From positions 6,463-70,462 of the forward strand of contig CATXCY010000010.1 in the NCBI GenBank assembly GCA_958366945.1: DNA of 64,000 bases. The letters are read 5' to 3'. Below, one piece after another: positions 5,511 to 60,120 of the stretch (positions are counted from its first letter, which is position 1; every line of letters starts with the position of its first letter). The notes beneath the pieces are model-generated. The model was not told the DNA's origin. It ran no database searches and saw nothing but the letters and a program-made list of their open reading frames with translations. This DNA is from an uncultured bacterium. Its GTDB lineage: Bacteria > Vulcanimicrobiota > Xenobia > Xenobiales > Xenobiaceae. The position numbers were made by a program, and so were the translations under genes.

Positions 5511-5516
5511 TTCAGT

Positions 5517-6786: not shown

Positions 6787-6791
6787 ATATA

Positions 6792-7823: not shown

Positions 7824-7843
7824 GTAAGATTATAGGGGGAGAT

Positions 7844-24864: not shown

Positions 24865-25881
24865 ATGGTAAAAATAAGTTCTGCCCAAAGTGGCACTTTT
24901 GCTGACGGTAGTATCGCAATATCTAGTTATAAAGCCAAAGCAGGCTACAGCGATAAGCCTGATTATCAAGCCGAGCAAATAGACAAGGGAGACAGTCTGT
25001 CCTTAACAACAGATATTGGCTCCTTTTTTAATTTTAACCATTTGTCTTCTGGACATCTTCGTCAAGGTACATTAAGTACATCTTCAACAAAGCAAGAACA
25101 AGTTTCTCCAAATTCTCTTATACCCAGACACTTAAGTGAGCAAGAAGCTGAAGCTTTATCCAACCAGCAACTCAAAGCAGAATATGGACGCCATAGTCAA
25201 ATATCTTCTGATTCGGAAGCCAAACAGCAGAAATGTATTAGTCGCTCCATTGTCTTAAGCCAAAATAGGGAGCAAGCTTTGCATATGAATAGGCTGAGCT
25301 CTACTTTGAAACAAAGCGGCCGAAAATTGGCACAGCAGGCTTTGGCTCAGATCGCTTCTGGAGTGGCACTTTACGCTTCAGGAGCGGCTATGGAAGCTGC
25401 GGGTAAGGCTATGCTTGGTTGTCCTTTTACCAAAGCTGCTGGCATGGCCCTCGTATCGAAAGGCAAAGCTTTGAAACAACGTGGTATGCAAATGCGCCAA
25501 TATGGGCAAAAATTGGAGCTTAGTTCTAAAAATTTATTGAGCTCTGGGCTCAGCTTAGGAGCTTCTGCCAATAAACAGATTAACTATGTTAAAAACGCTT
25601 GGCAAGCTCTCAATAATATTTATCAACAAATAAAAACTGTGGGAAATTTAGCCAAAAGTAGTATGCTTTGTGCTGAAAATGTGGGACGTAAACGTGGCCT
25701 TTCTTTTACTTCCACGCCTAGTGGAAATAAATTAAAGGTTGGATTGTCTGCTTCCAAAATTGACAATGCGGTTGTGAGCACGTCAAGTAAGGTAACCAAT
25801 TCGAAAAGTTCAGCCGTTACCAGCAGTGCCGTAAAGCCCCTGGCTTTAGTCATGGGGAGTATGCCAATTGAAGTAAAATAG
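24865..25881 (+). CDS. Hypothetical Ser/Ala/Gln-rich protein (first gene of paralog cassette)
   Basis: Strong RBS agagggggaag. 338 aa, low complexity, no signal peptide. Helical Ala/Gly/Met-rich central segment. Confidence 0.5.
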   Translation: MVKISSAQSGTFADGSIAISSYKAKAGYSDKPDYQAEQIDKGDSLSLTTDIGSFFNFNHLSSGHLRQGTLSTSSTKQEQVSPNSLIPRHLSEQEAEALSNQQLKAEYGRHSQISSDSEAKQQKCISRSIVLSQNREQALHMNRLSSTLKQSGRKLAQQALAQIASGVALYASGAAMEAAGKAMLGCPFTKAAGMALVSKGKALKQRGMQMRQYGQKLELSSKNLLSSGLSLGASANKQINYVKNAWQALNNIYQQIKTVGNLAKSSMLCAENVGRKRGLSFTSTPSGNKLKVGLSASKIDNAVVSTSSKVTNSKSSAVTSSAVKPLALVMGSMPIEVK

Positions 25882-26031
25882 CGGCGTAATTTTATACTTC
25901 TGCCAATCACTTTGCCTGCTGCTTTTGTCTATTCGGAGGCAAAGTGATTGTTCATTATAGAAAATTTTATATTCCATTGCTGGATAAAAATACAGGAAGC
26001 CCTGCAATACAATAGAACTTTCTACAGTATC

Positions 26032-27249
26032 ATGGCTAAATTTCCAGTGCTAGACGATAACTTTCCACGTATTATTCCTTCTTTCAGACAGTTAGTAAAA
26101 ATTATGTCCGAATGTGTGGCCGGCGGAGTTAGCTTAACTTGTACCGCCTTTGAGTTCCGCCAATGTGATGCTGCTTTAGGAACAGCTTTGGGCAATTTTA
26201 TGGAAGTTTTGCGCTTAAAAGAACTTCCTCCAGAGCGCAATGAAGCAATTAACGAAATAGTGCTTTTGTTTACGCGTATGAGTTCCGAAATGGCCAAATT
26301 AGAAACAGCTCTGAGTATGGATGCTACAGCTGCGGCCGTTTCTTGTGTGGCCAATATTTACGATCACTTAAAAGATTTGGAAGAATTAAATATGGACTTG
26401 AAAGCCGCTGTTGGCGATAGCCATATTTATTCCGAAGTGCCGGTGGTGGACAGTTTACTGCGAGCGGGCAATTTTGTCTTAGAAACTAACGGAGCCGAAT
26501 GGGAAGCTCTGAGTGCCCGTTTGGAAGCTCTTATTCCTCAGTGGAATGAGATCGTCTCTGGTACTGGACTGCCGGAAGAACTAATTCGCCACGACAGAGC
26601 GTTGGAGCGCCTCGTTGAGGTACTTAACGAGCGAAATTTAGAAGCTTTGCCAAAAGTTCTGGAAGAAGTAAAATCCAGCGGCGAAGATCTGGTCAACTTC
26701 CAAGATAGTCAAATAGACACCGATACTTCCTCTGTAGTTTTGTGCCCCTATTGTGGTAAGCCTATGATCGAGGGTAGTAAGAAGTGCTTCTCTTGCGGCG
26801 CCAGGATGCCAGAAGAATTTGAGCGAGATTCTACAGCCGACAAAGATTCTGAAAAAGGCGAAGCGGCTTATGAAGGCATGCCAGAATATGTACAGCGTAT
26901 TATGGATATCGCTCAAGAACTTCCCAATAATGCCAAGATGATTCGTCCTTTCAAACGTGCTGTGGGAGAATTGCGTAGACGTGTAGCCGATGCCAATTCG
27001 CGTATCAATAAAATGGCTTCTTCTAAAATTAAGACCACTCCGGAAGAACGCGAAAATATTGATGGCATCGTAGATTTAGCTAATACTTGCATAGAAAATC
27101 TCTCTAAAGCCGTTGAGCTTTTGGAGGAGTTTGAACCACCTGTCGACAGGTTCCATTTGCAATGTGCTTTGGAAGTTATGGTTAAAGCGGTCAAAGAAAT
27201 GCGTGGCATGGGCGGTTTGGCTCAAAAATATCGCAATTCTAAAAAGTAA
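26032..27249 (+). CDS. Zn-ribbon-containing helical protein, paralog A
   Basis: N-terminal motif FPVLDDNFPRIIP and central CPYCG...CFSCG ribbon. It aligns along its length to the next gene. Internal ATG chosen (ORF track starts at 25948). Confidence 0.5.
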   Translation: MAKFPVLDDNFPRIIPSFRQLVKIMSECVAGGVSLTCTAFEFRQCDAALGTALGNFMEVLRLKELPPERNEAINEIVLLFTRMSSEMAKLETALSMDATAAAVSCVANIYDHLKDLEELNMDLKAAVGDSHIYSEVPVVDSLLRAGNFVLETNGAEWEALSARLEALIPQWNEIVSGTGLPEELIRHDRALERLVEVLNERNLEALPKVLEEVKSSGEDLVNFQDSQIDTDTSSVVLCPYCGKPMIEGSKKCFSCGARMPEEFERDSTADKDSEKGEAAYEGMPEYVQRIMDIAQELPNNAKMIRPFKRAVGELRRRVADANSRINKMASSKIKTTPEERENIDGIVDLANTCIENLSKAVELLEEFEPPVDRFHLQCALEVMVKAVKEMRGMGGLAQKYRNSKK

Positions 27250-27294
27250 TCAGTTCTCTTTTGCGTGCACATGACACAGCTCATTGGAGGTACC

Positions 27295-28485
27295 ATGGTA
27301 GATAAGCTGCCTAAGCTAGATGATTCTTTCCCCAAATTGATTCCCCATTTGCGTACTTTTGTAAGTGGTTTGGAACATTGTATAGTCAATAAAGAACCTC
27401 TTTCCCAGCTTCGTGAAGAATTACACCAATGCGATGTTGTTATGTCTGCTTTTGTACTGGCTTTTAAGTACAGTGTGCGCGGCTATGACTACAACGAAGA
27501 AGAACTGGAACATATCGCTCAAGTTTATGCCGATATTGAAGGTGTCGGTGGTGTGCTTTCTTCTCTCATTTGTGATTTAAAAGACGATGATGTCGAAGGC
27601 GCTGTACGTGATGTTAATGCTCTGGTCAATCAGTTGAAAGAAACTGAAAAAAGCTTAGCCAAGCTCGAAGAACTAAGAAATTCCAAGGCAAAGATTTCTG
27701 AATTTGACAGCATTGATGGAGTCCTTAAAGCTGGTCAGGCCGTGGTTGAGGGACGTCGTGGTTGGGAAATGTTGGAAAATCGTCTCGACTATTTGCGCCC
27801 ATCTTTTGATAAGCTGGTCGCTTGCAACTCTTTGCCTGAGCATATAGAAGATTATTGCGAAGCTTTAGATAATTTATTTAGAGTTTGCGAATGTCAATCT
27901 GTAGAAGAATTACCTGCCGCCTTAGAAGCTTTAAAAGCGACTGGTGATGTACTGATAGAAAAATATAAAGAAGCTAAAGCTAAACAAGAAGCTTTGGCTG
28001 CACAACAAGTTTGGCATTGCCCTAAGTGTGGTTGTGAAGTCAGTGAATGGGATAAGCGTTGTCCTTCTTGTGGAATGAGGCTGCCTGAGCGTATCGTCAG
28101 TGAAGTAGGGACTGAGAATAATTGTTTATTGCCCATGTTACCTACATGCGTGCAAACAATTTTAGATAGCGTAAGCTCTTTGCGCGAAGGTAATGATGCT
28201 TGGGCCGAGTTCTCAGCTGGATTGCATGAATATGGCAAATTTGTAGGCGAGCTTAAAGATAGGTACGCCTCTTTGCCAGAAAGTGTTTTTAATGGCGCTG
28301 AAGCAGAAGGTGAGTCTTTGATTCTATCTCGCGAAGCTATGGAAGAAGGACTCACTAAATTAGAAAATGCCTATTATGTATGTGAACACATGCAAAATGG
28401 TGGCGAAGTTAGCGATGAGGAACTCGATTCTACGCTAGAAAGCATGATTGAGGGAGTAGAACAAACACGTCAAATAGCTGGTTAA
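27295..28485 (+). CDS. Zn-ribbon-containing helical protein, paralog B
   Basis: ATG after the RBS ggagg. N-terminus LPKLDDSFPKLIP, ribbon CPKCG...CPSCG, acidic helical regions. Collinear with paralog A. Confidence 0.55.
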   Translation: MVDKLPKLDDSFPKLIPHLRTFVSGLEHCIVNKEPLSQLREELHQCDVVMSAFVLAFKYSVRGYDYNEEELEHIAQVYADIEGVGGVLSSLICDLKDDDVEGAVRDVNALVNQLKETEKSLAKLEELRNSKAKISEFDSIDGVLKAGQAVVEGRRGWEMLENRLDYLRPSFDKLVACNSLPEHIEDYCEALDNLFRVCECQSVEELPAALEALKATGDVLIEKYKEAKAKQEALAAQQVWHCPKCGCEVSEWDKRCPSCGMRLPERIVSEVGTENNCLLPMLPTCVQTILDSVSSLREGNDAWAEFSAGLHEYGKFVGELKDRYASLPESVFNGAEAEGESLILSREAMEEGLTKLENAYYVCEHMQNGGEVSDEELDSTLESMIEGVEQTRQIAG

Positions 28486-28513
28486 AATTTCCCAAAGTTT
28501 GTCTTTTTCTATA

Positions 28514-28569
28514 ATACCCGCAAAAGTACGCGAGCTGCTTAGAAGTGCGTACAAAGCGGGTATTTTTTG
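28514..28569 (+). terminator. Strong rho-independent terminator
   Basis: ATACCCGCaaaaGTACGCgagctgcttagaagtGCGTACaaaGCGGGTATTTTTTgt: nested hairpin plus T-run. Confidence 0.75.
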
Positions 28570-28680
28570 TGATGAGTTAATTAAAAATATTCTATAAAAA
28601 ATTTGCCTGCAACTCTTTACTTTTAGGCCTTGTGCCTTGAAAATAAGGACAAGTCTAGTTTTAAAAGAGAGGTAATTCTC

Positions 28681-29814
28681 ATGGGTGTTTTATCTACTGC
28701 TTCTACTATAGCTATGATGACGGCTAACGATTACAAGAATGCTCAAGCCATCTATGCTAATATGCAACAACAGGCTACGCTTGCCCAGAATGGTGGTATG
28801 GGAGTTCTTACCCAGCAAGCTCTTAAGGCTGCCTCCGCGCAGAATATGGAATTGCTTAATCAGCAAGCCGCGCAAGCCGCTAAAGCTTCCTCTGGCTCTT
28901 CTTCTATCGATTCTATATCATCTTCTTTTAGTGACCAGATTCAGCAACTGACCTCTTCCAATCTTTCTGTCACTGATCAGATTAGCCAGATTACTTCCGC
29001 TTCTGGTATGTCTGCTTCTTCTGCTGCTGGTTTTTCTACTTCTACAGATTTTACTCAGGCTATTATTGATAGCATTTCTTCTGCTAGCAAGTCTTCTTCC
29101 AGCTCCAGCACCAATAGCGACGTAATGACTAGCGCTACCAATATGCTGAAGACTTACTTCAAACAGTTCTGCCCTGGCATGAGCGATGAGCAAATTTCTG
29201 CTATTTGCAAATTTGCCGCCTCTCAGTATGGTGACCTGGCTAAGGCCATGGATATGAGTTCCTTAACTTCTAGCGTTATGGGCTCTTCTTCTACCGGCAG
29301 TGCCAGCAGCTCTGGAAGTGCTAGCAGTGTAGGTAACAATGGCAACTACGGCGCCAATAAGGGCGTAAGCGGTTTGCTTTCCGATGCTGGCGCTATGGTT
29401 GGTATGACTGAGCAGTCTAATGCTGCTTCTATTAACAAAATCACCAAAAAGAGTGGTATCAATTGCCAGACTACCCCTTGGTGCGCTGCTTGGGCAATGA
29501 ATATGCTCAAAGACCATGGTGTGTTGGATACTTCTTCTTGCTCCAACGTCAACTATTGTCCCACTATCGTAAACTGGGCCAAAAAAGAAAATATTTGGGC
29601 TGGTCGCGGTTCTTACACTCCTCAAGCTGGTGACGCGATCCTCTTCGACTGGCAGGGTGATGGTACTTCCGATCACATTGGTATCGTAGAAAAAGTCGCC
29701 AACGGTAAGGTTTATACCATTGAAGGTAACTCTTCTGACTCCGTGGCCAGAAGAAGCTACAGCTTGAGCAGTAGCAAAGTTATGGGCTATATCAACTGCG
29801 CCGCTCAAAAATAA
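28681..29814 (+). CDS. Polymorphic-toxin-like protein: low-complexity N-terminal region, conserved internal module, C-terminal CHAP-domain peptidoglycan amidase/peptidase
   Basis: ATG after the RBS agagagg. C-terminus TPWCAAWAMNML...AGDAILFDWQGDGTSDHIGIVEKVANGKVYTIEGNSS has the CHAP Cys and His motifs. No signal peptide. Confidence 0.6.
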   Translation: MGVLSTASTIAMMTANDYKNAQAIYANMQQQATLAQNGGMGVLTQQALKAASAQNMELLNQQAAQAAKASSGSSSIDSISSSFSDQIQQLTSSNLSVTDQISQITSASGMSASSAAGFSTSTDFTQAIIDSISSASKSSSSSSTNSDVMTSATNMLKTYFKQFCPGMSDEQISAICKFAASQYGDLAKAMDMSSLTSSVMGSSSTGSASSSGSASSVGNNGNYGANKGVSGLLSDAGAMVGMTEQSNAASINKITKKSGINCQTTPWCAAWAMNMLKDHGVLDTSSCSNVNYCPTIVNWAKKENIWAGRGSYTPQAGDAILFDWQGDGTSDHIGIVEKVANGKVYTIEGNSSDSVARRSYSLSSSKVMGYINCAAQK

Positions 29815-29844
29815 GTAAATAGCACTATATAGCTTTGCAATAAC

Positions 29845-29888
29845 AACTCCCTCCGAGTATAAATTTAGCTCGGGGGGAGTTTTCTTTT
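29845..29888 (+). terminator. Rho-independent terminator
   Basis: AACTCCCTCCGAGtataaatttagCTCGGGGGGAGTTttctttt. Confidence 0.75.
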
Positions 29889-29993
29889 GACTAAGATTAG
29901 ATGCAAATAAAGAAATAATAAAGAAAAGTCTAGACGCCTTGGCAAGCTGTCGTTATACATAAGAAACTACTTTTTAGGTTTGGAAGGTGCGTT

Positions 29994-30938
29994 ATGTCTT
30001 TGCCATCTATCACCATGAATTTCTTGGCTGCGCAAGGTGTTGCGGGATTGCCAACCAGTTCCAATAGTGCAAGCACTGGCGTTAATAGTACTGCTGTTTC
30101 TGCTCTTGATAGCGCTTCTCTTAGTTCTTTAGCTACAGCAGGAACTGATGGATTGGCCAACCTTGGCTCTTTGTCTGATTACTTGTCTGGTCAGGCCTCT
30201 GGAAGTTCTGGCAGCAGTGCCTCTTTGGGACTTTCTGGCAGTGCCGATTTTGCTTCCATGGTTGGTGAAATTGCCAAGCAATATAAGGGCAGCAGTTCTT
30301 CTTCTGCCAACAATCAGGTAATGTCCACTGCTGCCAATATGTTAAAAACATATTTTAAGCAATTTTGTCCTGGTATGAGTGACGACCAGATTACCGCTAT
30401 TTGTAATATGGCCTCTGCACAATACGGCGATTTAGCTAAAGCTATGGATATGAGTTCTTTAACTTCCAGTGTTATGGGCTCTTCTTCTGCTGCTTCTGGA
30501 GCTACTGGCGCTTCTTCTAGTGCTGGTTCTTCCGCAGTTTCAAAAGTAAGTGCCAAAGACGTTAAGGGTACCGCTTGGGGCAAGGCTTTAGCTGCTGACG
30601 CAGAGTCTCATGCCACAGGTAGCGGCGGCTGGTGCTTCAAATATGTGCGCCAAGCTTTAGAGCGCCATGGAGTTACTGGAGTTGGTGGCGCCAGTGCTTA
30701 TATGGCTGCCGATCAATTAGCCCGCAATAGTAACTTCAAAGAAATTAGTGTTTCAGAATCAGATCTTCGCAATTTGCCTGCAGGTTATGTTGTCGTTTGG
30801 AATAGAGGTAACGGTGCTAGTAGGCAGCATGGCCATATTTGCATCTCTTTAGGCGATGGTAGAGAAGCTTCTGACGTTATTCGCAAAATGACTCAAGGAT
30901 ATGGCACTTCCTTTAGAGTTTTTCAGCCTGTAAAATAA
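29994..30938 (+). CDS. Polymorphic-toxin-like protein: low-complexity N-terminal region, same conserved internal module, C-terminal Tae4-like papain-fold peptidoglycan amidase
   Basis: C-terminus GGWCFKYVRQALERHG...AGYVVVWNRGNGASRQHGHICISLGDG parallels the Cys (xCxxxxxxLxxxG) and His (GH-hydrophobic) motifs of the Tae4 family of gamma-D-glutamyl-mDAP amidases. No signal peptide. Confidence 0.55.
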   Translation: MSLPSITMNFLAAQGVAGLPTSSNSASTGVNSTAVSALDSASLSSLATAGTDGLANLGSLSDYLSGQASGSSGSSASLGLSGSADFASMVGEIAKQYKGSSSSSANNQVMSTAANMLKTYFKQFCPGMSDDQITAICNMASAQYGDLAKAMDMSSLTSSVMGSSSAASGATGASSSAGSSAVSKVSAKDVKGTAWGKALAADAESHATGSGGWCFKYVRQALERHGVTGVGGASAYMAADQLARNSNFKEISVSESDLRNLPAGYVVVWNRGNGASRQHGHICISLGDGREASDVIRKMTQGYGTSFRVFQPVK

Positions 30939-30956
30939 GTTGCTATTAAAATAAAA

Positions 30957-31000
30957 AATAACGTTCTGTCTATATTTCATTTGCAGAACGTTATTTTTTT
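30957..31000. terminator. Bidirectional rho-independent terminator (convergent genes)
   Basis: aaaataAATAACGTTCTGtctatatttcatttgCAGAACGTTATTTTTTT. Confidence 0.75.
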
Positions 31001-31044
31001 GCTCACTTATAAAAATAATTGTTTGTTATTTTCTATACAACCAA

Positions 31045-33303
31045 CTAATCAAACATTTTATCTAATTCGGCTTTTTTAAAGCGTTGAGGCTCGTGACCAG
31101 TCCAGTCGATCACAAAATAAATCTTTTCTGGTTGTTGTATTTTGCTGAAAAAACGTATTTGATCTGTAGGTAGCATTTTATAATTGTAATACCAGCCAGT
31201 GGGAGAGGGTTTGGAAATTCCTTTGGCATGAAGATGGCGAGCACCTTTAGGGAAGAAGGGCATAACTCGTGCAGCCAATTTCTCGCCTAAAACTTTGCAC
31301 CCCATATCGCCGCGCATTATTAAGCGGAGGTGGGGAGCGAAGAGTAAGCTGCTTTCAAAGCCTACCGTCTGCCCTTGAAAATCGCCTTCTACGGTATCGC
31401 GAATTATCAATCTTTGTTCTGTAGGCTTAAAAAGAAGCTCACGTCTTAAACTTAAAACTAAACCGTTAGTTAGATGAGCTTGACGCCTTGTCCACAAGAG
31501 TACATCCGCTCCTCCTTTTCTTTCCCTATACAAAGGAGAGCAAAAAACGTAACCCTCTTTATGTATCTCAGTTATATTGTCAGGAAAATCTATGCGTTCG
31601 GAAGCGTTCAAATCTCCCAAATAGGCCACTTTAAAAGGCGAAACTTCCTCGGCAAGTGTGGGAGCGGAATGGGAAAAAAAGCTATTTAAATAAGGATAAG
31701 CGCTGCTAGAAATAGTGGAAAAACCAGCATCTATAAGGAATGGCTCATTTTCTATAGTTAAAAATATTGATAAGAAATCACAATGTGGCTGGGGCACAGC
31801 TTGGTGTAAATTGGGAGCTTTATAAAAACCTTTAGTTAGATCGGCAGTTGGACAACCTTTTATAATGGCCTGAGAACTGTTGGCTCCCCAATGATCACGC
31901 ACACTGCCTATACCATTGGCAACGAAATAAAAACTTGTCTCTTCAGGAAAATAATCTCCTCGACCAGCACCAAATTTGGCGGTGAGCTCTGGAGTAGGAG
32001 CTACCCACCAAGACACTTCCGCAGGCATACGCTCTATGCCACATAAGAATTCGTCATGGTCGAAAACTATGGCACCCAGACATAATAAAGTCTGAATATA
32101 CTCGGATATAGAGGATTGCCTTCCCATAAATCCTGGAGCACAAAATGTGCCTATATGAGGAGCTACTTTATTGGTGCCGTTAATAGCTTGCAAAGCTTCA
32201 AGAGAAATGCGCAGCGCTTCTGATAAATATTGCGGAGTTTGGGTATGATTGCTTACATGCTGCAATACAGGCAATAGCATCCATTCTAAAGCCGCACAAT
32301 GAGCGCATAAAGATCCACTTAAATGTAACCCGCTACTTCCAAACTCACGTTCAATAAGGTCTAAAAGCTTAGACTCTGCAACTGAACGCCACCGCTTAGA
32401 TAATTTTAATTCAGGAAAATTGCTTGCGAATACATAGAGACAGGCTGCAGCAGGGAACGATAAAACTGTATCGTAGCGAAGGTGCCAAGCCAAAGCTGCT
32501 CCGTGTACGATCATCGTTTCCATTATTTTCGCGAAAATACGGGGCGTAAAAGCAGAGCTGTGTAAACACATATCAACGGCAATCATCCAGTTCATCAGCC
32601 TGATGGCTACCGTATCAAAATTTAGCCAGTTTACACCTATCCAAAGAGGATTGCTGGCTCCCCATTCAGTCGCTTGAATGAGAATCTCGGAAGCGTATTT
32701 GTCCTGTTTGCTAAGCCAATAAGAGCGGGCCAAAGTGAGAAAATGATAATGCTCATTTAGCTCCCAGGTACGATCCAAAGAAGGATACTTGGCTAAGGGA
32801 GATTCGCTCAGATTGGCTTTATTATCCGGAGATAAAACTTTTCTCAGCTCTTTAACGGCAGTTCTAGGCCAGCTTCTAGAGCAAAAATCGGAAAACCAAT
32901 CAATGTTGCCAGTGAAAGTTTCTTGTTGGTTGGAAAGATAAGAAGAAAAAGTATGCCTCATCGCTTGCTGCGTCGAGTCACTGAGCTCTTTGACAGCTGA
33001 AGGAGAGGATTTAAACGCATTTGCAACTTCCTTGGTGTCTGAATGTCGCAAAAATAGCGTAGGGCGACTGCGGTCGCGGAAGTGATTGAAGAGCGCTTCC
33101 GCGGCCTTATCAGGTTGATCGTGCAAAGAATAATTTTTTGCTTCCTCGATTCCAGGTGCTCCAGAGAATTGCCCAAACAAATATTTGTCTTGCAAATCGT
33201 AAGTAGAACAACTGTCGTAAGCCAAATCGACCTGAGCCTCCAAGCTAAATGGCATGGAAGAAGTGATTATATTCTTACGTAACCAAGGAAACATATTATC
33301 CAA
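31045..33303 (-). CDS. Heparinase II/III-like (alginate-lyase superfamily) protein
   Basis: 752 aa. N-terminal alpha/alpha toroid-like region with W/N/R-rich motifs (WIGVNWLNFDTVAIRLMNWMIAVD) and a C-terminal beta-sandwich-like region. Immediately downstream of a DegT aminotransferase. Confidence 0.55.
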   Translation of the reverse strand: MDNMFPWLRKNIITSSMPFSLEAQVDLAYDSCSTYDLQDKYLFGQFSGAPGIEEAKNYSLHDQPDKAAEALFNHFRDRSRPTLFLRHSDTKEVANAFKSSPSAVKELSDSTQQAMRHTFSSYLSNQQETFTGNIDWFSDFCSRSWPRTAVKELRKVLSPDNKANLSESPLAKYPSLDRTWELNEHYHFLTLARSYWLSKQDKYASEILIQATEWGASNPLWIGVNWLNFDTVAIRLMNWMIAVDMCLHSSAFTPRIFAKIMETMIVHGAALAWHLRYDTVLSFPAAACLYVFASNFPELKLSKRWRSVAESKLLDLIEREFGSSGLHLSGSLCAHCAALEWMLLPVLQHVSNHTQTPQYLSEALRISLEALQAINGTNKVAPHIGTFCAPGFMGRQSSISEYIQTLLCLGAIVFDHDEFLCGIERMPAEVSWWVAPTPELTAKFGAGRGDYFPEETSFYFVANGIGSVRDHWGANSSQAIIKGCPTADLTKGFYKAPNLHQAVPQPHCDFLSIFLTIENEPFLIDAGFSTISSSAYPYLNSFFSHSAPTLAEEVSPFKVAYLGDLNASERIDFPDNITEIHKEGYVFCSPLYRERKGGADVLLWTRRQAHLTNGLVLSLRRELLFKPTEQRLIIRDTVEGDFQGQTVGFESSLLFAPHLRLIMRGDMGCKVLGEKLAARVMPFFPKGARHLHAKGISKPSPTGWYYNYKMLPTDQIRFFSKIQQPEKIYFVIDWTGHEPQRFKKAELDKMFD

Positions 33304-33315
33304 GCCGCAGATCTC

Positions 33316-34416
33316 CTAATGACGAGGGAAATTCTTAATTGTAGATACTACAGTGGCAATTTGCTCGTCGCTAAGTTCGGGGAACATAGGCAAGGACATG
33401 ACTTCTTTTTGCACTTGCTCGCAAATTGGCAAAGAGCCTTCCTTCATGCCGCTGGATGCAAAAGTTTTTTGCAAGTGAAGGCATACTGGGTAGTAAATGG
33501 CCGGACCAACACCGTTTTCACGCATATAATCGAAAAGCTCGTCACGATGAGGAGTGCGAATAGTGTACTGGTGGAAGACGTGATGGAAACCTTCGCGCTC
33601 AAGAGGAGTGATCACTCCGCTGTCTTTCAGAGCTTCTGTGTATTTTTGAGCTACAGAGCGACGCTTTTTATTCCACTCATCGACATGTTTGAGCTTGACG
33701 CGCAAAGCGGCAGCCTGAATTTCGTCTAAACGACTATTGGTGCCTAAAATTTCGTGATAGTATCTGACCTTACTGCCGTGACCGCGCAGCATTTGCACTT
33801 TTTCAAAGTACTCGTCGCTATTGGTTAAAACCATACCGCCGTCGCCAATACCGCCTAAGTTTTTGCTGGGGAAGAACGAGAAACAGCTGAGATCGCCGAA
33901 TCCTCCGACTTTTTTGCCATCTACGCAAGCTCCGGTAGCTTGAGCGCAGTCTTCAATTAAAGCTAAATTGTGCTCTTGGCAAATAGCCTTAATGGCTTTG
34001 ACATCGGCAGCGTGTCCGTAAAGGTGGACGCAAATTACAGCTTTGGTATGTGGAGTGATAGCTTTCTTTAAGCTTTCCGGATCTAAAGTAAAAGTGCGAG
34101 GGTCAATATCGGCAAATACAACTTTGGAACCAGCCAAAGCTACAGCGCCGGCGGAAGCTACAAAAGTGAAGGAAGGGACGATAACTTCATCGTCGGCTTT
34201 AAGATCTAGGGCTCTCACTGCCAATTGCAGAGCATCAGTGCCGTTCCCTACGCCTATACCGTGTTTAACTCCGTTCCAAGCCGCAAACTCTTCTTCGAAA
34301 GCTTTTACTTCGGGGCCTAAAACATATGCAGTAGAGCGCAGAACTTTCAGTACGGCTGCTTCCAATTCATCTTGGATTTGAGAGTACTGAGTGCGAAGCT
34401 CTAAAATAGGGATCAT
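33316..34416 (-). CDS. DegT/DnrJ/EryC1/StrS-family PLP-dependent sugar aminotransferase
   Basis: VIVPSFTFVASAGAVALAG, DCAQATGA, FSFFPSKNLG (PLP lysine). 366 aa. Confidence 0.88.
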   Translation of the reverse strand: MIPILELRTQYSQIQDELEAAVLKVLRSTAYVLGPEVKAFEEEFAAWNGVKHGIGVGNGTDALQLAVRALDLKADDEVIVPSFTFVASAGAVALAGSKVVFADIDPRTFTLDPESLKKAITPHTKAVICVHLYGHAADVKAIKAICQEHNLALIEDCAQATGACVDGKKVGGFGDLSCFSFFPSKNLGGIGDGGMVLTNSDEYFEKVQMLRGHGSKVRYYHEILGTNSRLDEIQAAALRVKLKHVDEWNKKRRSVAQKYTEALKDSGVITPLEREGFHHVFHQYTIRTPHRDELFDYMRENGVGPAIYYPVCLHLQKTFASSGMKEGSLPICEQVQKEVMSLPMFPELSDEQIATVVSTIKNFPRH

Positions 34417-34768: not shown

Positions 34769-36583
34769 TTAACCTTTGCTGCGTACTTCAAACTCTAAGC
34801 GCCATTTAGGAATGGAGTCTTGGCAACACCAAACTTCTAAGGTACCTACTTCGGTTACATAAGTTTCTAAAGTAACTGGTACTACTTTACCAATTTCTCC
34901 CGCTTCAGCCGGTAAAGTAATTTGCAACGAAGGCAATTCTTCTATATCGTCTTCCCAATCGTCGATTAAGTCACCAATTTTATCTTGCTGTCGACAAGTG
35001 GAAGCTAAAAATCTAAATTCAGCCAGTTCGCCTATGACCAGGCCGAAACTGCGATTAGGTAGACGCTCGCGTGAGTCTTCTTCCATGCCGAAAGGAGCGA
35101 CGCATAAAGCTTTAATGGGAGGAACAAGACCAGGAACAGCTGGCATGGAAGTTTCGATACCAACATAATAAGAGCGATTGGTACCGGCTTTAATTCTTAT
35201 TCCAGAACCTTGACTAGCCAAACCGCTGCGCACGGCTCCGCGAGCTACGGCCAAGTCGTAGTCCGCTCCTACTAATTCTTTGGCGGGAGGAGCTCCCACA
35301 GATTCTAACCAAGAGTTTACCGTTTCCAATAAACGACGGCGCAAGATGGGAGCTTTCAGCACGCCTCCGTTAAAGAGAATTGCTGTAGGAGCAAAAATGG
35401 GAGCGGAGCCATCTTCTGGTTTATTGGCTGCCAAAAATCTGGCCAAATGTTTGGTGATAGCCGGATTCGATTCAAAAGGCAAGCCCAATTCGCGCAAACC
35501 ACTTTGACGAGACCGTTCAGCTTGTTCATCAAGGGAACATTTAGGGAAGAATCCGTCTACAATTAGTTGCTCGGTAACTTGGCGGCTTAAGGAGTCGGCA
35601 ATGGAAGAAGCTATTAAGCTGCTGCCGCGTCCAGGAATGGTGACGCTCCACTCTTCCTCGGCGTATTCTTGTAACAGTTGCTCTTTGGCTGTGCGGCAAG
35701 CATGGGTGAGGACTTGCATTTGCCAAGCGTCAAGCTTAATTTTACGCTCTGATTTTAGCTTTTGCTGCATATACACAGCCAAAGTCAGATCCATGTTGTC
35801 TCCGCCAAGTAAGAGATGATCTCCTACAGCTGAGCGCTCTAAGCATAAGCTGCCGCCTTGGTCGGCTACAGTAATAAGGCTAAAGTCGGTAGTTCCTCCA
35901 CCTATATCACATACTAAAATTTTGTCTCCGACTGCTACTTGAGAGCGCCAATCTTCTTCAGTGTTAACCAACCAAGCATAAAAAGCGGCTTGAGGCTCTT
36001 CTAAGAGGGTTAAATTTTTGATGCCAGCTTTTTGAGCTGCTTGAACGGTTAGTTCTCTAGCTATCGTATCAAAGGAAGCAGGTACAGTTAAAACGACTTG
36101 CTGATCTTCTAAGGGCTGATCGGGGTGTTCAAAATTCCAAGCTGAACGTAAATGCTCCAAATAACGAGCCGAAGCGTCAATGGGGGAGATATGCTCCACT
36201 TCTTCGGGAGCGTTCCAAGGCAAAATAGGAGCACTGCGATCTATTTGCTCACTAGAAAGCCAAGACTTGGCTGAAGAAACAACTCTGTGGGGAACTTTAG
36301 CGCCTTGCTCACGGGCCATATATCCGACTATGTCTTTGGCCTCTTTATCCCAAGGCAATTCGATACTATGGGCTGGCAATTCGTGGGAGCCGGGGAAGTA
36401 AAGAAATGAAGGCAGAGTCTTGCGTGGCTCTACTGTAGCCGGATAGGTAAGCTGAGGAACAGCAAAATGATTTATAGGAGGAGTCTCTTTAGCTGCCTTC
36501 GCTTGTGCTGAAATGGATTCCGGATCAGACCAAGCTAAAGCGCAATTTGTTGTTCCCAAGTCTATACCTATAATCATATGCAA
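34769..36583 (-). CDS. Hsp70-family (actin-like ATPase) protein, non-canonical
   Basis: IIGIDLGTTNCALAW, VLTVPASFDTIARELTVQAAQKAGI, VCDIGGGTTDFSLI. Confidence 0.8.
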   Translation of the reverse strand: MHMIIGIDLGTTNCALAWSDPESISAQAKAAKETPPINHFAVPQLTYPATVEPRKTLPSFLYFPGSHELPAHSIELPWDKEAKDIVGYMAREQGAKVPHRVVSSAKSWLSSEQIDRSAPILPWNAPEEVEHISPIDASARYLEHLRSAWNFEHPDQPLEDQQVVLTVPASFDTIARELTVQAAQKAGIKNLTLLEEPQAAFYAWLVNTEEDWRSQVAVGDKILVCDIGGGTTDFSLITVADQGGSLCLERSAVGDHLLLGGDNMDLTLAVYMQQKLKSERKIKLDAWQMQVLTHACRTAKEQLLQEYAEEEWSVTIPGRGSSLIASSIADSLSRQVTEQLIVDGFFPKCSLDEQAERSRQSGLRELGLPFESNPAITKHLARFLAANKPEDGSAPIFAPTAILFNGGVLKAPILRRRLLETVNSWLESVGAPPAKELVGADYDLAVARGAVRSGLASQGSGIRIKAGTNRSYYVGIETSMPAVPGLVPPIKALCVAPFGMEEDSRERLPNRSFGLVIGELAEFRFLASTCRQQDKIGDLIDDWEDDIEELPSLQITLPAEAGEIGKVVPVTLETYVTEVGTLEVWCCQDSIPKWRLEFEVRSKG

Positions 36584-36624: not shown

Positions 36625-37131
36625 CTATAACTCTACTTCAGCCGGACAAATAACGTCTGAATCTTCGTCCTGAGCGCTTTGGGGCAAATTGGCTTTTTGT
36701 AAGCGCCAGCCTTTGTGACGCAAGATCCCTTTGAAGGGCGGATCGCCTTCTACTTTGCCTACCAAACGAATTGCGCCTGGATCGAAGCCGTCTTCTACAG
36801 TAATTTCTATACCTTCTTCTTCGGTACGGATAGGCTCCAGAATCAAATACTCTTGGACAGCTTTGCGGCAGCCTTTATAAACAGTAGATTTTACTACAGC
36901 TCCGACTTGAGCGTCAGGGACATTCTCTAAATCTTCTTGCAAAAAGTCTATAAGCCGTCCTTCTCTCTGAAGCAAAGCTAAAACTCCTACCGCACCGGGA
37001 TAAAGCGAAGGTACTCCGGACGGAGTTTCTTGAACAACTTCGCGATCTGCCAGCAGAAGAGCCAACTTTTCGGCAAATTCTTTATTAAACAAAGCTTTGA
37101 AAAAAGCTTTAAAAGCTGTGATTATACGCAT
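36625..37131 (-). CDS. Small acidic protein, possibly DUF2760-like Hsp70 partner
   Basis: 168 aa, N-terminus MRIITAFKAFFKALF, directly downstream of the Hsp70-like gene on the same strand. Confidence 0.35.
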   Translation of the reverse strand: MRIITAFKAFFKALFNKEFAEKLALLLADREVVQETPSGVPSLYPGAVGVLALLQREGRLIDFLQEDLENVPDAQVGAVVKSTVYKGCRKAVQEYLILEPIRTEEEGIEITVEDGFDPGAIRLVGKVEGDPPFKGILRHKGWRLQKANLPQSAQDEDSDVICPAEVEL

Positions 37132-39176: not shown

Positions 39177-40880
39177 CTATTGACTGATTAATTTGCGCAA
39201 ATCCCCGTATTGTCTGATCTTAAACCAAGTTAATTCTCCGTTAAGTAAGTAACGCCAGGCTACAGCTCCCATTTTTATGAAATTAGTTGCCCAAGCTAAA
39301 TAAAACGGAAATTGCCAATGACGTTTAAAAAAATCTCGTCGCTCTAGCAAGAAATTTATGAAACTTTTGGGTATGAACGATTTTGAAGCCAGACAGTATA
39401 TAGCTAAATAAAAGCGATCTTCTGGACTACGAGGCCAATCCATCGAAACACGGAACTGCTTCCAAGCTTTGTTGTTCATGCCTTCAACCTCATCGGGAGA
39501 AAGTTTGCCTTCAGCCAGTAATCTTTTGGTTATGGCTGTGCCTGGAAAATAGTTAAGTGAGTAAAAATAGACGTCGTAAGGGCGTTCTAGCTCTAACATA
39601 AACTTGGCTGTTTCTAATTTCATCTTTTCATCGGCCCAAGGGTTGTCGATAATTAGATCATAAACAGCTGATATGCCCAGTTGTTTGTTGAATTTGGAAA
39701 AGGCTAGTATATTATCGTTGCCCGGTATGCGGTTATGAACAGCCAAACTTTCCTGCGGTGAGCCGCTTTCGATGCCTGTTTGCATTCGGACCAAGCCGGC
39801 TTTTTTTAGCTTCTCCAGAAAAGGCTGACGTAACATAGGTGGTATAAGCATACATTCAAAGGGCAAACCTATACGCTGTGGATATTTTGAGCAGAATTCG
39901 TCTACCCATGAGGGAGGGGCTGCAAAAGCTGTATCATCATCTATTTTTACTCTAGCCAAACGGGGAAAATGCTTTTTTATATATTCAAGCTCGCCTAAAA
40001 TGTGCTCTACGGAGCGTAGACGATAAAATTTTTGTTTGTCGGCCGCAAATTTTTCGCGCAGAATAGATACATAACAGTAAGAACAATTATAAGGACAGCC
40101 CCGTGAACAATAAATTCTGTATTCAGCTGTTCTCTTCCAGGGCTCTTCATTGTGAATTTTTTTATCTTCTATATAAAACTTATTGAAATCGTCTACATCT
40201 GGATAAGGCAATTCGTCCAAGTTGGCAATTAGAGGGCGCATTTCGTTTTTGTAAATTTTGTCTCCCAACTTTGCCCAAATATTGGGAATATCGCCGGTAA
40301 AATTATTGCTGTATAGAGCCTCGCATAAGTCTATAAGTGGAGCTTCTCCTTCGCCCAGACAGAGATAATCGGCGCAATCTAAAGCTCCTTCGGGGACAGC
40401 AGTAACGTGAATACCGCCCCAACATACTGGTAAATCAGAAAAGCGTTTTTTTAGTGCTTTGGTAAGCTCTTTTACCATTGGCAACAAGCTAGAAATAAAG
40501 CCTATGCCTACAAGATTGGCTTGTTTGTCGGCTATAATTTTGAATACCAACTCTAGTTCTTGAGCTGAAGGCATTTCCAATTTGTTATTTACCCAATCGC
40601 GCAAGAAAATTAGATCCACCTGGAAACCGGCGCGGCGTAAAGCTGCTGATAAGTAGCGCAAACCGGAATTTTCAACGCTGTAAATAGCTATTAATATTAC
40701 ATTAAATTGTTTTGGCTCTCCGTACCAACCAGAGCGAGGTGCCCAGGGAGCATGAATTTGTTTCTGTGCCGATCCTAAAGCCGGATCGAAAAGAGCCTCT
40801 GCCGATCCTGGAGAAGCGCCGGGAGCAGTTAATTTTGATGAAAAATTGTCATAAGTAATAGTTTTATCTGAATTTAACAT
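39177..40880 (-). CDS. B12-binding-domain radical SAM protein
   Basis: N-terminal B12-binding Rossmann region (VILIAIYSVENSGLRYLSAALRRAGF), radical SAM motif CSRGCPYNCSYC. Overlaps the upstream gene by 7 nt. Confidence 0.8.
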   Translation of the reverse strand: MLNSDKTITYDNFSSKLTAPGASPGSAEALFDPALGSAQKQIHAPWAPRSGWYGEPKQFNVILIAIYSVENSGLRYLSAALRRAGFQVDLIFLRDWVNNKLEMPSAQELELVFKIIADKQANLVGIGFISSLLPMVKELTKALKKRFSDLPVCWGGIHVTAVPEGALDCADYLCLGEGEAPLIDLCEALYSNNFTGDIPNIWAKLGDKIYKNEMRPLIANLDELPYPDVDDFNKFYIEDKKIHNEEPWKRTAEYRIYCSRGCPYNCSYCYVSILREKFAADKQKFYRLRSVEHILGELEYIKKHFPRLARVKIDDDTAFAAPPSWVDEFCSKYPQRIGLPFECMLIPPMLRQPFLEKLKKAGLVRMQTGIESGSPQESLAVHNRIPGNDNILAFSKFNKQLGISAVYDLIIDNPWADEKMKLETAKFMLELERPYDVYFYSLNYFPGTAITKRLLAEGKLSPDEVEGMNNKAWKQFRVSMDWPRSPEDRFYLAIYCLASKSFIPKSFINFLLERRDFFKRHWQFPFYLAWATNFIKMGAVAWRYLLNGELTWFKIRQYGDLRKLISQ

Positions 40881-43503: not shown

Positions 43504-43567
43504 AAGGTTGTTTTGACAGCTCTCGGACTTTTATTGCATGTATATGCATTGATTAATTAGCGGATTG

Positions 43568-44596: not shown

Positions 44597-44623
44597 GTTG
44601 CTTTTTGTCTCTCCGTATTGTGC

Positions 44624-59778: not shown

Positions 59779-60120
59779 GTTCTTGGTAACAATGCTCTAT
59801 AAGGAGCCGCCTGATCGGATTACTCTAAGTAAAGGTGTCTCGATTTGGCGGCTGCTTATTTGCAATTACAATTAGCACTACAATGACTCATCTTGGTATA
59901 CAGCATCAGCTTTTCTCTTGTTGAGGTATCAGGCAAACTCAAAATAATTTTAACTAAATGCCTAATTATAAAACAGACTTATGCTTAAGAGCCAATTTGT
60001 TCTGCTTAAATGTTGTAAAATGGACCCGCTTAGCCAGGAAGTCGCACTTATTTTGACCAATAGTAAGCGGCAAGTTTTTCCAGGGGTGCAGTCGTTTTGC
60101 CAGAAGATAATCAGAGCCAG

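Follow-up and report, generated by a model that had tools for sequence, protein, structure and literature searches.

How does an enzyme that is predicted to cut peptidoglycan reach the cell wall if it carries no recognizable export signal? In diderm bacteria, hydrolases of the cell's own wall normally leave the cytoplasm by the Sec, Tat or lipoprotein route, with FlgJ, injected effectors and phage lysins as the exceptions known to us. The question matters because the export of wall hydrolases, and their restraint, is central to how bacteria grow and how they kill one another. It is raised here by a CHAP-domain gene in a 64,000-nucleotide stretch of DNA, which we call the window and to which all coordinates refer.

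The CHAP gene and its companion

The ATG at 28681 is the start codon in the database orthologues as well (coverage 100%), and the alternative in-frame start, TTG 28630, would add only 17 residues that do not resemble a signal. A hairpin separates the gene from the zinc-ribbon gene upstream, and because strong terminators stand on both sides, the CHAP gene looks like its own transcription unit; a terminator also follows the companion gene downstream. No RNA family was found within the window by Rfam at gathering thresholds, and PADLOC defence models and NCBIfam returned nothing beyond one sub-threshold match, to TIGR02594.

Table 1. Features of the CHAP locus, in window coordinates
Feature	Position	Strand	Details and basis
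Two paralogous zinc-ribbon helical proteins	25948-27249 and 27265-28485	+	Directly upstream of CHAP gene
Terminator-like hairpin and U-run closing upstream zinc-ribbon gene	28505-28572	+	-23.5 kcal/mol, z -3.6 (RNA fold)
Ribosome-binding site GAGAGG	28667-28672	+	8 nt 5' of ATG; read from sequence
Gene for leader and putative CHAP wall hydrolase	28681-29814	+	377 aa, stop codon included; ORF list, same-length orthologues
Fast-evolving leader part	28681-29046	+	aa 1-122; composition, hydropathy, pLDDT 33-57, dN/dS
Module common to neighbouring gene	29047-29280	+	aa 123-200; 69% identity (BLASTP)
Flexible Ser/Gly-rich linker	29281-29355	+	aa 201-225; pLDDT 33-38, composition
CHAP catalytic domain	29356-29811	+	aa 226-377; Pfam, invariant residues, AlphaFold2, Foldseek
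Catalytic codons, CHAP gene	Cys268 29482-29484; His332 29674-29676; Glu348 29722-29724; Asn350 29728-29730	+	
Intrinsic terminator of CHAP gene	29845-29895	+	14-bp stem and U-run, -24.2 kcal/mol, z -6.0
Companion gene	29994-30938	+	314 aa: signal-less leader, same module, Tae3-like Cys/His/Ser putative wall peptidase domain
Module in companion	30246-30476	+	aa 85-161
Tae3-like domain in companion	30549-30935	+	aa ~186-314
Candidate catalytic residues, companion	Cys214 30633-30635; His281 30834-30836; Ser293	+	

The Pfam CHAP profile (PF05257) matches aa 264-350 of the product (E 7e-13; score 49.3 bits, cut-off 26), and AlphaFold2 models the protein from about aa 222 to aa 377 at pLDDT above 90 as a papain-like alpha+beta fold, with Cys268 opening a helix (268-278) and His332 opening a strand (332-340). 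Cys268 (in PWCAAW), His332 (in SDHIGIV) and Glu348 and Asn350 (both in TIEGNSS) are invariant in 52 aligned homologues; the motifs picked out in the original prediction are thus the true catalytic ones, in a conserved domain that measures about 150 aa instead of the roughly 120 aa given there. Because PDB sequence searches found nothing significant for the CHAP domain and only a weak Tae3 match for the domain of the neighbouring protein, a fold search was needed. The Foldseek neighbours of the CHAP model are CHAP lysins and autolysins, namely Ly7917 (5d74, E 2e-4), Acd24020, PlyC and PlyPy, and the E. coli Gsp amidase is also among the matches. The TIGR02594 match spans the entire domain (aa 232-370, aligned to positions 2-130 of a 132-position model) at 26.2 bits, below the curated cut-off of 70.55, and TIGR02594 is a distant relative only. 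The co-occurrence of cysteines, as a hint of a disulfide, was confounded by phylogeny. We also considered and rejected a recent phage origin of the gene, as its viral relatives are just 29-50% identical and its context is not that of a prophage.

CHAP domains are either MurNAc-L-Ala amidases or endopeptidases of the stem or cross-bridge. The best reading of the product is a predicted peptidoglycan-cutting cysteine peptidase or amidase, whose target would be the stem, the cross-link or the MurNAc-L-Ala bond. Pfam and fold agree on a CHAP enzyme, as had been proposed, but the narrower label of amidase is not established, since either activity is open to a CHAP domain.

The companion gene shares more than its position, for 54 of 78 residues of its module (69%) are identical to those in the CHAP protein (BLASTP, E 2e-32). 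The companion protein has no Pfam match; a profile search matched its C-terminal domain weakly to PDB 4hz9, and its AlphaFold2 model superposes on 4hz9_A with E 1e-5, TM 0.78, rmsd 2.6 Å and 24% identity (Foldseek). 4HZ9 is Tae3, which has a C-H-S triad (PMC10318531), and C214, H281 and S293 are invariant. An hhalign comparison of this domain with the CHAP profile gave a probability of 4%: the Cys and His columns align, and no relationship at the level of the family was detected. Among close relatives the companion was detected at loci L010 and L013, with a partial match at L045, and went undetected at L007-L009, L011, L012 and L024. No ORF that could plausibly encode an immunity protein lies in either 29815-29993 or 30939-31044.

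A leader shared across the lineage

As judged from sequence, the first 225 aa of the CHAP protein contain neither a membrane helix nor a signal of the Sec, Tat or lipoprotein kind. The highest Kyte-Doolittle score of any 19-residue window (KD19) is 0.57 across the protein and 0.38 within its N-terminal 45 residues, residues 1-15 hold no K or R, and neither an RR motif nor a lipobox Cys was met on reading the first 40 residues. Control proteins with a signal peptide or a transmembrane helix, taken from the source genome and from related Eremiobacterota genomes, have KD19 values of 1.8-2.7 and 2-4 K/R. The absence of a Sec signal, with which interest in this gene began, is therefore borne out. 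With KD19 at most 0.57 anywhere in the protein, no weakly hydrophobic transmembrane domain of the SAR-endolysin type was found, and a transmembrane or signal-anchor reading was ruled out here and for most of the family. LXG and WXG100, the T7SS families, gave no Pfam match with the full protein or its N-terminal parts; Trp is absent from the N-terminal 225 aa, and the protein terminates in the CHAP domain, without RTX repeats.

What the region does contain is an uncharged N-terminus, two predicted A/Q-rich helices (aa 5-36 and 42-71) of low confidence (pLDDT 44-57) and hypervariable sequence, and then a Ser-rich stretch; A makes up 21% and Q 13% of residues 1-80, and S makes up 30% of residues 81-170. 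The module that follows opens with an aromatic motif, 'TDFTQA', and holds a helical hairpin at aa 144-190, 'NMLKTYFKQFCPGMSDEQISAICKFAASQYGDLAKAMD', whose helices H144-163 and H169-190 are modelled by AlphaFold2 at pLDDT 77-81. It occurs in one to three copies among relatives, with repeats in the homologues P0016, P0043 and P0093, and has no Pfam match even at E 10. The original prediction had described 250 aa of low complexity, A/Q-rich and then S-rich. We measured 225 aa and found the same order of composition, but the low complexity is not uniform, as the hairpin folds.

From sequence comparison, this region is best explained as the form that a more widespread leader takes here; the leader occurs in Eremiobacterota (UBP9/Xenobia, 'Ca. 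Bruticola') from the gut and from the environment. In order, that leader consists of an uncharged low-complexity stretch, a Met/Gln-rich helix, a short aromatic motif (NFLGG, SYLNG or DYLSG) and a flexible linker; in the clade of the window gene, a 45-aa helical hairpin stands between the motif and the linker. In the window protein an Ala/Gln-rich helix replaces the Met/Gln-rich one, and 'TDFTQA' is possibly the counterpart of the aromatic leader motif. What links the A/Q/S-rich N-terminus to the Met-rich leader in this proposal is a common architecture, together with short motifs and intermediate forms ('SLNFLDS' at L013, 'DYLNG' in the P0023 clade), and not a significant alignment. In our leader alignment A4, FG and FLG are invariant, and the motif [FY][LM][GNS][GS] is found in 55 of 73 and 46 of 119 N-terminal regions, where shuffled sequences lead one to expect 10.7 and 15.8. 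Lack of hydrophobicity is general: among 118 homologues of the CHAP family and 73 of the Tae3-like family, N-terminal regions have a median best KD19 of 0.9-1.0, and a value of 1.6 is reached in only 3 and 6 of them, respectively.

The leader precedes at least six wall-hydrolase classes, comprising two CHAP subfamilies (the second represented by P0225), Tae3-like, NlpC/P60, SLT and, at L048, GH19-like domains. Four tandem leader genes at L001 carry two CHAP domains, an NlpC/P60 domain and an SLT domain, an arrangement met again at L020 and L022, and tandem paralogue arrays number four genes at both L066 and L001. Other relatives combine a glucosaminidase with this CHAP domain, and at L023 a single protein of 1988 aa unites four domains of this CHAP subfamily with RTX repeats and a Peptidase_M91 domain. 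Every leader cargo found was a wall hydrolase, in about 70 loci that were fetched around CHAP and Tae3-like genes and are biased towards the neighbours of these. The cargo list is incomplete because leader profile searches of large databases failed: profile A4 gave one match in a collection of 5.8 billion proteins, where low-complexity proteins swamped the word prefilter, and four matches at E <= 1e-3 in an exhaustive HMMER search of 1.84 billion representatives, and a narrower alignment, A6, confirmed one locus in a metagenome scan.

The attachment of one leader to at least six wall-hydrolase classes points to a putative export or control route that has not been described. The suggestion that the N-terminus serves in targeting or translocation is upheld in this way, as the leader is common to several unrelated wall-hydrolase domains, and we regard this sharing as much stronger evidence for targeting than composition alone. 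Neither the leader nor the 45-aa hairpin module has been described as a domain before.

Conservation, neighbours and the export route

The two halves of the protein evolve at very different rates. With L007 excluded from the comparison, dN/dS is 0.14-0.39 for the leader, a sign that it is translated and under purifying selection, and 0.01-0.06 for the CHAP domain. Residues 1-122 are 39-89% identical in five closer orthologues (L045, L010, L011, L008 and L012) and cannot be aligned in L007, L024, L013 and L014, whose CHAP domains nevertheless remain 81-95% identical. Across the lineage the domain retains 60-70% identity; in comparisons that give 75-77% identity for the DEAD helicase and 76-77% for Sua5 it reaches 95%, and it is the most conserved protein segment of its neighbourhood. 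Synteny is fixed, with rpoD, the DEAD-box helicase gene and sua5 around the CHAP gene; dnaG lies further upstream in the window, and the dcw cluster is 19 kb off.

After removal of clade-limited synteny and of generic families (kinases, radical SAM), a single recurrent conserved neighbour was left. This is the zinc-ribbon family, found immediately 5' of leader-CHAP genes in 14 of 50 Eremiobacterota loci (some redundant), in two distant clades with 31% identity. Neither PDB nor Pfam offers an informative relative of the zinc-ribbon protein; from its position, it may be functionally linked to the leader-CHAP genes. At L067 a Tae3-like relative stands directly 3' of mreB-mreC-mreD-pbp2-rodA. One Tae3-like gene is adjoined by a gene for a periplasmic ankyrin-repeat protein, which is reminiscent of the Bdellovibrio immunity protein Bd3460.

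We found no export machine beside the CHAP gene or in the 64-kb window, which holds only a type IV pilus/T2SS-like cluster 20 kb off. Genes for T6SS, T7SS and T1SS are absent from the scanned ORFs of the window and not recurrent in about 50 related loci; for T6SS this covers the Pfam-scanned ORFs, which among ORFs of at least 150 aa means all but three (49928-50404, 60097-61488 and 61596-63047). ABC and HlyD genes are likewise absent from the window and not recurrent in the related loci, and the window has no flagellar genes and no genes for FtsE or FtsX.

The best lead on the route is a flagellar-type (T3SS-like) export gate. At L070 a solitary FliQ/SctS gene lies 83 bp 5' of a gene for a leader with a Tae3-like domain, and at L068 and L072 stand-alone genes for an FlhA C-terminal domain lie 2-3 kb from such genes; these neighbours were noticed post hoc, at three of about 10 loci, in the Tae3-like family only. 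To our knowledge, FlgJ is the one signal-less wall hydrolase that is sent into the cell's own periplasm, and it travels by flagellar-type export. The order UBP9 does possess flagellar genes (PMC9259500 supplement). A likeness between the Met-rich helix and the rod-binding motif of FlgJ ('GMFVQMMLKSMR' against 'TFMMKMIQS' and 'LMLKQMQAM') is tempting by eye, and we rejected it: the rod-binding domain of E. coli FlgJ (aa 1-127) aligned to the leader profile with an hhalign probability of 0.3%, and the Pfam rod-binding domain (PF10135) found no match in 20 leaders even at E 10. The number of paralogues per genome exceeds the needs of a flagellum. A further lead on the route is the RTX-bearing relative at L023.

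More broadly, we offer as a tentative proposal, which may well prove wrong, that UBP9/Xenobia Eremiobacterota, and perhaps Gastranaerophilales, possess an undescribed Sec-independent pathway, dedicated to wall hydrolases, that recognizes them by the uncharged disordered N-terminus, the Met/Gln-rich helix and the aromatic 'NFLGG' motif of their leader, maybe with a flagellar-type gate or FliQ- and FlhA-C-like pieces, and with zinc-ribbon proteins as cytoplasmic partners.

Own wall or weapon, and comparison with known systems

We favour the view, which we hold at somewhat less than an even chance, that the CHAP protein hydrolyses peptidoglycan after leaving the cytoplasm by a route that depends on the leader and not on Sec, and that its target is more likely the producer's own wall than that of another cell. 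In this scheme the leader, and not a Sec signal, would carry the unfolded enzyme out through a dedicated machine and may restrain it until it is outside. The exported CHAP domain would then cut murein, probably that of the producer, in growth, division or the insertion of envelope machines, with the Tae3-like protein as a possible accessory enzyme on the same route. We lean towards the own wall because the gene is core and syntenic, is under exceptionally strong purifying selection and has no immunity gene. For the same reasons, and given the elongasome setting of the relative at L067, we do not favour the suggestion that the enzyme serves in something other than housekeeping wall turnover.

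Its most serious competitor, a possible reading to which we give distinctly less credence, is an interbacterial or predatory weapon, in which the leader would be a one-step export signal (T1SS/PCAT-like, T3SS-like or other) and the enzyme would lyse other bacteria, especially Gram-positives. Signal-less wall hydrolases are classically effectors. Tae3, to which the domain of the neighbouring gene is matched, is a T6SS effector; the CHAP domain has its nearest relatives, both by structure and among phages, in lysins of Gram-positive walls; and a single leader has been shuffled onto many lytic domains, with tandem arrays at L066 and L001 and the four-CHAP, RTX and Peptidase_M91 protein at L023. 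The variable presence of the Tae3-like gene in close relatives and the ankyrin-repeat neighbour, with its likeness to Bd3460, point the same way, as does the predatory lifestyle suggested for the order UBP9 (PMC9259500). The presence among the cargos of Tae3-like, GH19 and CHAP domains, the last closest to lysins of Gram-positive phages, the modular shuffling, the RTX/M91 relative and the predatory proposal fit a weapon equally well as an own-wall enzyme. Against it stand the lack of an immunity gene beside the window genes or within the tandem clusters, although the producer of such a weapon would need none because its diderm outer membrane shields it, and the lack of T6SS, T7SS and T1SS genes noted above. 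Moreover, typical effectors are patchy and fast-evolving, whereas the CHAP gene is core, syntenic and conserved above its housekeeping neighbours, and one relative sits within an elongasome operon.

We consider each of the remaining alternatives improbable. The Met-rich helix could be an internal, weakly hydrophobic signal-anchor (SAR-like) that takes the protein by the ordinary Sec/SRP route to the periplasm; some relatives do have fairly hydrophobic, Gly-zipper-like helices (P0046 'LLSMVLELLMGILMGGMLG', KD 1.95; P0165; P0199), and P0184 has what looks like a signal peptide whose basic n-region is long. That idea fares poorly with the window protein, which has no hydrophobic stretch (best KD19 0.57), and with the family, whose median is 0.9-1.0 and in which 1.6 is reached in only 9 of 191 N-terminal regions; Q, N and K interrupt the helices, no K or R precedes them, and the conserved Lys C-terminal to the helix gives the wrong orientation for the positive-inside rule. 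Slightly less credible still is an enzyme of the endolysin or the colicin M/pesticin type, which would stay in the cytoplasm until lysis or a holin released it and whose disordered N-terminus would import it into targets. It would account for the missing signal peptide, for the distant phage endolysin relatives and for the disordered Gly/Ser/Asn-rich N-terminus with short linear motifs, which resembles the translocation domains of colicins, but the setting is chromosomal and housekeeping, with no holin, lysis, immunity or prophage genes nearby, viral relatives are 29-50% identical at most, and the gene is core and vertically inherited. Least probable, and very unlikely in our estimation, is an amidase that acts in the cytoplasm on a substrate other than the wall, as the CHAP domain of the Gsp amidase does, with the N-terminus as a scaffold or condensate-forming region. 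The absence of an export signal, the Gsp amidase among the structural matches and the prion-like composition of the N-terminus would suit it; the best structural matches, however, are lysins and autolysins and not Gsp, the leader is found on SLT, GH19-like and NlpC/P60 domains, and relatives join this CHAP domain to a glucosaminidase, all of which points to murein. Because the SLT and GH19-like cargos act on murein glycan, the site of action should be outside the cytoplasm, and a cytoplasmic role is unlikely.

A lineage-wide signal-less leader on at least six unrelated lytic domains is unusual, as is a catalytic domain whose conservation exceeds that of core housekeeping proteins. Should the leader prove to be an export signal, it would mark out a new substrate class, and perhaps a known machine put to a new use, in a phylum that is poorly known and has members in the human gut; should the system be a weapon, the gain would be a family of bacteriolytic enzymes that carry a portable tag for delivery.

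Several known systems share part of this design. Pesticin and colicin M likewise lack a signal and place a disordered N-terminus with short linear motifs before the enzymatic domain, but they are plasmid- or island-borne, patchy and accompanied by immunity genes, whereas the window gene is core, chromosomal and without one. Tae1-4 are signal-less papain-like wall peptidases, and the domain of the neighbouring gene superposes on Tae3 with Cys, His and Ser kept; Tae proteins are small and single-domain, with an adjacent Tai gene and a T6SS, whereas here a leader of 185-225 aa is present and the scanned window ORFs include no immunity or T6SS genes. CHAP hydrolases such as Ly7917, PlyC and LysK and the staphylococcal and streptococcal autolysins have the same fold and the same Cys-His-Glu-Asn set as the window protein. 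The autolysins have Sec signals and the phage lysins depend on holins, in contrast to its signal-less leader, and their accessory modules bind the wall (SH3b, LysM), whereas the leader has no known domain and the host is diderm.

FlgJ, the flagellar rod-cap/muramidase, also lacks a signal and has a disordered N-terminal part; the flagellar type III apparatus exports it across the inner membrane into the producer's own periplasm, and it is known for its domain plasticity. The FliQ-like and FlhA-C-like genes near three relatives add to the likeness; the differences are the lack of detectable rod-binding homology and of flagellar genes in the window, the many paralogues and the six cargo classes. 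A similar layout is seen in PcsB, CwlO, RipC and EnvC, coiled-coil hydrolases which are controlled by FtsEX. These proteins have a Sec signal, a conserved coiled coil and ftsEX, whereas the window protein has no signal, low-confidence hypervariable helices and no ftsEX nearby; long canonical coiled coils are found in Melainabacterial and some UBP9 relatives. Their order of N-terminal helices, flexible linker and C-terminal hydrolase (a CHAP domain in PcsB) is the same as that found here, and their role in growth and division of the producer's own wall matches the role that we propose for the CHAP protein.

Catalytic domain and N-terminal region of the CHAP protein

From its sequence, we predict that the CHAP gene encodes a true CHAP wall hydrolase whose leader is non-classical and specific to the lineage. 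The catalytic domain, which is a member of an already known family, matches Pfam CHAP at aa 264-350 (E 7e-13); Cys268, His332, Glu348 and Asn350 show no variation in 52 homologues, the AlphaFold2 model has pLDDT >90 for aa ~222-377, and its Foldseek matches are CHAP lysins and autolysins (Ly7917, Acd24020, PlyC, PlyPy and Gsp amidase). The original prediction of a CHAP domain is thus upheld, and so is its C-terminal placement, although the domain spans ~150 aa rather than ~120. Likewise, the N-terminal region is long, as had been proposed, but measures 225 aa rather than 250 and includes a folded hairpin, and is not all low-complexity. In 117 of 119 CHAP homologues one more Cys, outside the catalytic set ('NYC', domain position 67), is retained, and a further three co-occur in 31, with disulfides or a catalytic helper as candidate roles.

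The predicted lack of a signal peptide was also borne out: no hydrophobic stretch is present (best 19-residue Kyte-Doolittle window 0.57) and the first 15 aa contain no basic residue, against 1.8-2.7 and 2-4 K/R in signal-peptide or TM-helix controls from the same genome and related Eremiobacterota. Among N-terminal regions of the wider family the median best window is 0.9-1.0, and only 9/191 reach 1.6; a cryptic signal-anchor is therefore ruled out for this protein and most of its relatives.

Gut metagenome-assembled genomes with the labels UBP9, 'Ca. Bruticola' or Hadza gut bins supply the near homologues; farther ones carry the label Eremiobacteraeota, Vulcanimicrobiota or 'Ca. Xenobia'. 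Over this whole set the catalytic domain is 60-70% identical, and most of the length of the N-terminal regions cannot be aligned. Gastranaerophilales and related gut MAGs (L051-L056) encode ~600-aa proteins without a signal peptide; these have an 'MTNLNFNSF' N-terminus, an EF-hand-like motif (DADGNGELD), a long coiled coil and, at the C-terminus, a CHAP domain that shares 35-39% identity with that of the CHAP gene.

A leader common to several murein hydrolases

On the evidence of sequence comparison, the N-terminal region is a leader common to several wall hydrolases and not junk, a reading that draws on constraint, on a module found in the neighbouring gene and on a common architecture in relatives. 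With dN/dS at 0.14-0.39, aa 1-122 are translated and constrained; the CHAP domain has 0.01-0.06. The 78-aa module is 69% identical between the CHAP protein and its Tae3-like neighbour, and the models of both proteins fold it into a helical hairpin at pLDDT ~80-90.

In relatives of higher G+C (the window is ~42%), one architecture precedes many catalytic domains: an uncharged N-terminus, frequently 'MxNxNF' or 'MQ[FY]G', then G/M/F-rich low complexity, a conserved Met/Gln-rich helix, 'FGG...' and an aromatic motif (NFLGG, SYMNG or DYLNG) 18-33 residues ahead of the catalytic domain. This motif occurs in 55/73 and 46/119 N-terminal regions (10.7 and 15.8 expected from shuffling), and in aligned CHAP-family and Tae3-like-family leaders alike FG and FLG never vary. 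Composition is G 18%, S 13%, A 11%, M 9% and Q 7% in the CHAP family and similar in the Tae3-like family, and charged residues are scarce in the sequences listed. The window's clade would have Ala/Gln/Ser in place of Met/Gly and would have gained the hairpin module; the two versions are connected by intermediate forms, namely '...SLNFLDS' immediately ahead of the module in one relative (L013) and 'DYLNG' together with the module in the P0023 clade. Neither leader nor module matches a Pfam family, and we found no description of them, or of the route that they imply, in Pfam, NCBIfam, PADLOC or the papers retrieved.

Every leader protein seen carries a murein hydrolase. Tandem genes in three loci (L001, L020 and L022) join it to CHAP, CHAP, NlpC/P60 and SLT domains, and further cargos are a second CHAP subfamily (P0225), a GH19-like domain (L048) and Tae3-like domains; the census is partial, the leader being of low complexity, and these types are a lower bound. 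A zinc-ribbon protein gene stands ahead of the L001-type arrays.

Conservation and gene neighbourhood

Coordinates are collected in the table. The window holds the housekeeping genes mutL, dnaG, rpoD, a DEAD-box helicase gene, sua5 and a dcw cluster (mraW-ftsI-murE-murF-mraY-murD-ftsW), and strong terminator hairpins lie on both sides of the CHAP gene. Its position is unchanged in 9/9 clade genomes sampled, and within the clade no other segment of the neighbourhood is as well conserved as its CHAP domain (95% identical, versus 75-77% for the DEAD helicase, 76-77% for Sua5 and 83-85% for the Hsp70-like protein; 81-84% versus 72-75% for DegT). The Tae3-like neighbour was detected in only two clade loci, L010 and L013, and matched in part in L045; it belongs to a lineage-wide family of >100 proteins with the same leader.

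Both zinc-ribbon proteins are all-helical, and the CxxC...CxxC zinc ribbon at their centre is their one known domain; Zn1, one of the pair, shows 89-97% conservation within the clade. Members of the family also immediately precede leader-CHAP genes in another, distant clade (31% identity), which brings the total to 14/50 loci. The Ser/Lys-rich orphan evolves very fast (47-79% identity between close relatives). In an unrelated locus (L018) an Hsp70-like gene begins immediately after a CHAP gene. The heparinase, DegT and radical-SAM genes may form a surface-glycan or natural-product cluster.

Features of the window and of loci from relatives
Feature	Position	Strand	Content
Type IV pilus/T2SS-like cluster	4319-8917	+	PilX_N protein, two ORFs with prepilin-type N-termini, GspF/PilC homologue, 357-aa protein
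Orphan	24865-25881	+	338 aa, Ser/Lys-rich, no family match
Zinc-ribbon genes	25948-27249, 27265-28485	+	Paralogous pair (26% identity), directly upstream of CHAP gene
CHAP gene	28681-29814	+	377 aa; ATG start, GAGAGG upstream of start
CHAP domain	29356-29811	+	
Tae3-like neighbour gene	29994-30938	+	Signal-less protein, module and C-terminal domain
Putative glycan or natural-product genes	31045-34416, 39177-46423	-	Heparinase II/III-like protein, two DegT-type aminotransferases, four radical-SAM genes (two B12-binding)
Hsp70-like and DUF2760 genes	34769-36583, 36625-37131	-	Divergent Hsp70-like ATPase beside DUF2760 protein
Tandem genes	L001:10001-14131 (also L020, L022)		Gly-Met-repeat and Met/Gln-helix leader on each
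Giant ORF	L023:72-6038 (JAUNIO010000058.1)	+	1988 aa, no signal peptide; coiled coil, 2 CHAP, glucosaminidase, 2 CHAP, RTX calcium-binding repeats, C-terminal Peptidase_M91 effector domain
Elongation-gene locus	L067:2911-11061	one strand	mreB, mreB/mreC fusion, mreD-like, pbp2, rodA, signal-peptide and ankyrin-repeat protein, leader and Tae3-like, 125-aa orphan
Flagellar-type neighbours	L070:933-2010		FliQ/SctS
	L068:12833-13948		FlhA C-terminal
	L072:3880-5031		FlhA C-terminal

Site of action and export route

It is very unlikely that the enzymes act in the cytoplasm, since murein glycan is the substrate that SLT, GH19-like and glucosaminidase cargos require. Release by phage or lysis is unsupported: the surroundings show neither holin nor prophage genes, and relatives in viruses reach only 29-50% identity; these two readings and a cryptic Sec signal receive only smaller shares of probability. 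We tentatively favour, at a little short of even chances, an own-wall enzyme exported by a Sec-independent route, which would act on the producer's own wall. Consistent with this are the core status of the gene and its extreme purifying selection, both of which speak against a weapon, and the Tae3-like member that follows mreB-mreC-mreD-pbp2-rodA in L067, a periplasmic ankyrin-repeat protein lying between. No immunity-like ORF was found beside the CHAP gene or its Tae3-like neighbour, which also fits an own-wall role; a diderm secreting lysins beyond its own outer membrane, however, would need no immunity gene either. Genomic markers place Eremiobacterota among diderms (PMC6664022), and in the sole species in culture the murein layer is thin and the outer membrane contains LPS (PMC9758169).

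That the enzymes are weapons against other bacteria we regard as the less likely of the two remaining readings, even though several observations point that way: effector- and lysin-type cargos, modular domain shuffling and tandem arrays (four in L066), and the predatory lifestyle proposed for order UBP9 (PMC9259500). To these may be added the giant L023 protein, which looks like a secreted lytic toxin and whose four CHAP domains all belong to the window's subfamily.

Some leads to an export route come from Tae3-like loci. In L070 a leader and Tae3-like gene has a solitary FliQ/SctS gene (86.7 bits) 83 bp upstream of it, and in L068 and L072 stand-alone FlhA C-terminal-domain genes (371-394 aa, membrane part missing) lie 2-3 kb from such genes. 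By a rough estimate, three such neighbours in about 10 Tae3-like loci exceed chance, the observation being post hoc; none occurs near the CHAP gene of the window. Flagellar genes are present in order UBP9 (PMC9259500). A direct test for homology of the leader helix to the FlgJ rod-binding domain was negative. That the leader marks a new export pathway is, in our judgement, doubtful.

The C-terminal catalytic domain of the Tae3-like neighbour has no Pfam match, and its model can be overlaid on Tae3, an amidase effector of the T6SS (4hz9_A; TM 0.78, rmsd 2.6 A, E 1e-5). Its invariant candidate catalytic residues, Cys214, His281 and Ser293, agree with the Cys-His-Ser triad of Tae3 (PMC10318531). 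In the CHAP protein the catalytic family is known, and what may be new is the leader, the hairpin module and the putative export route that they imply.
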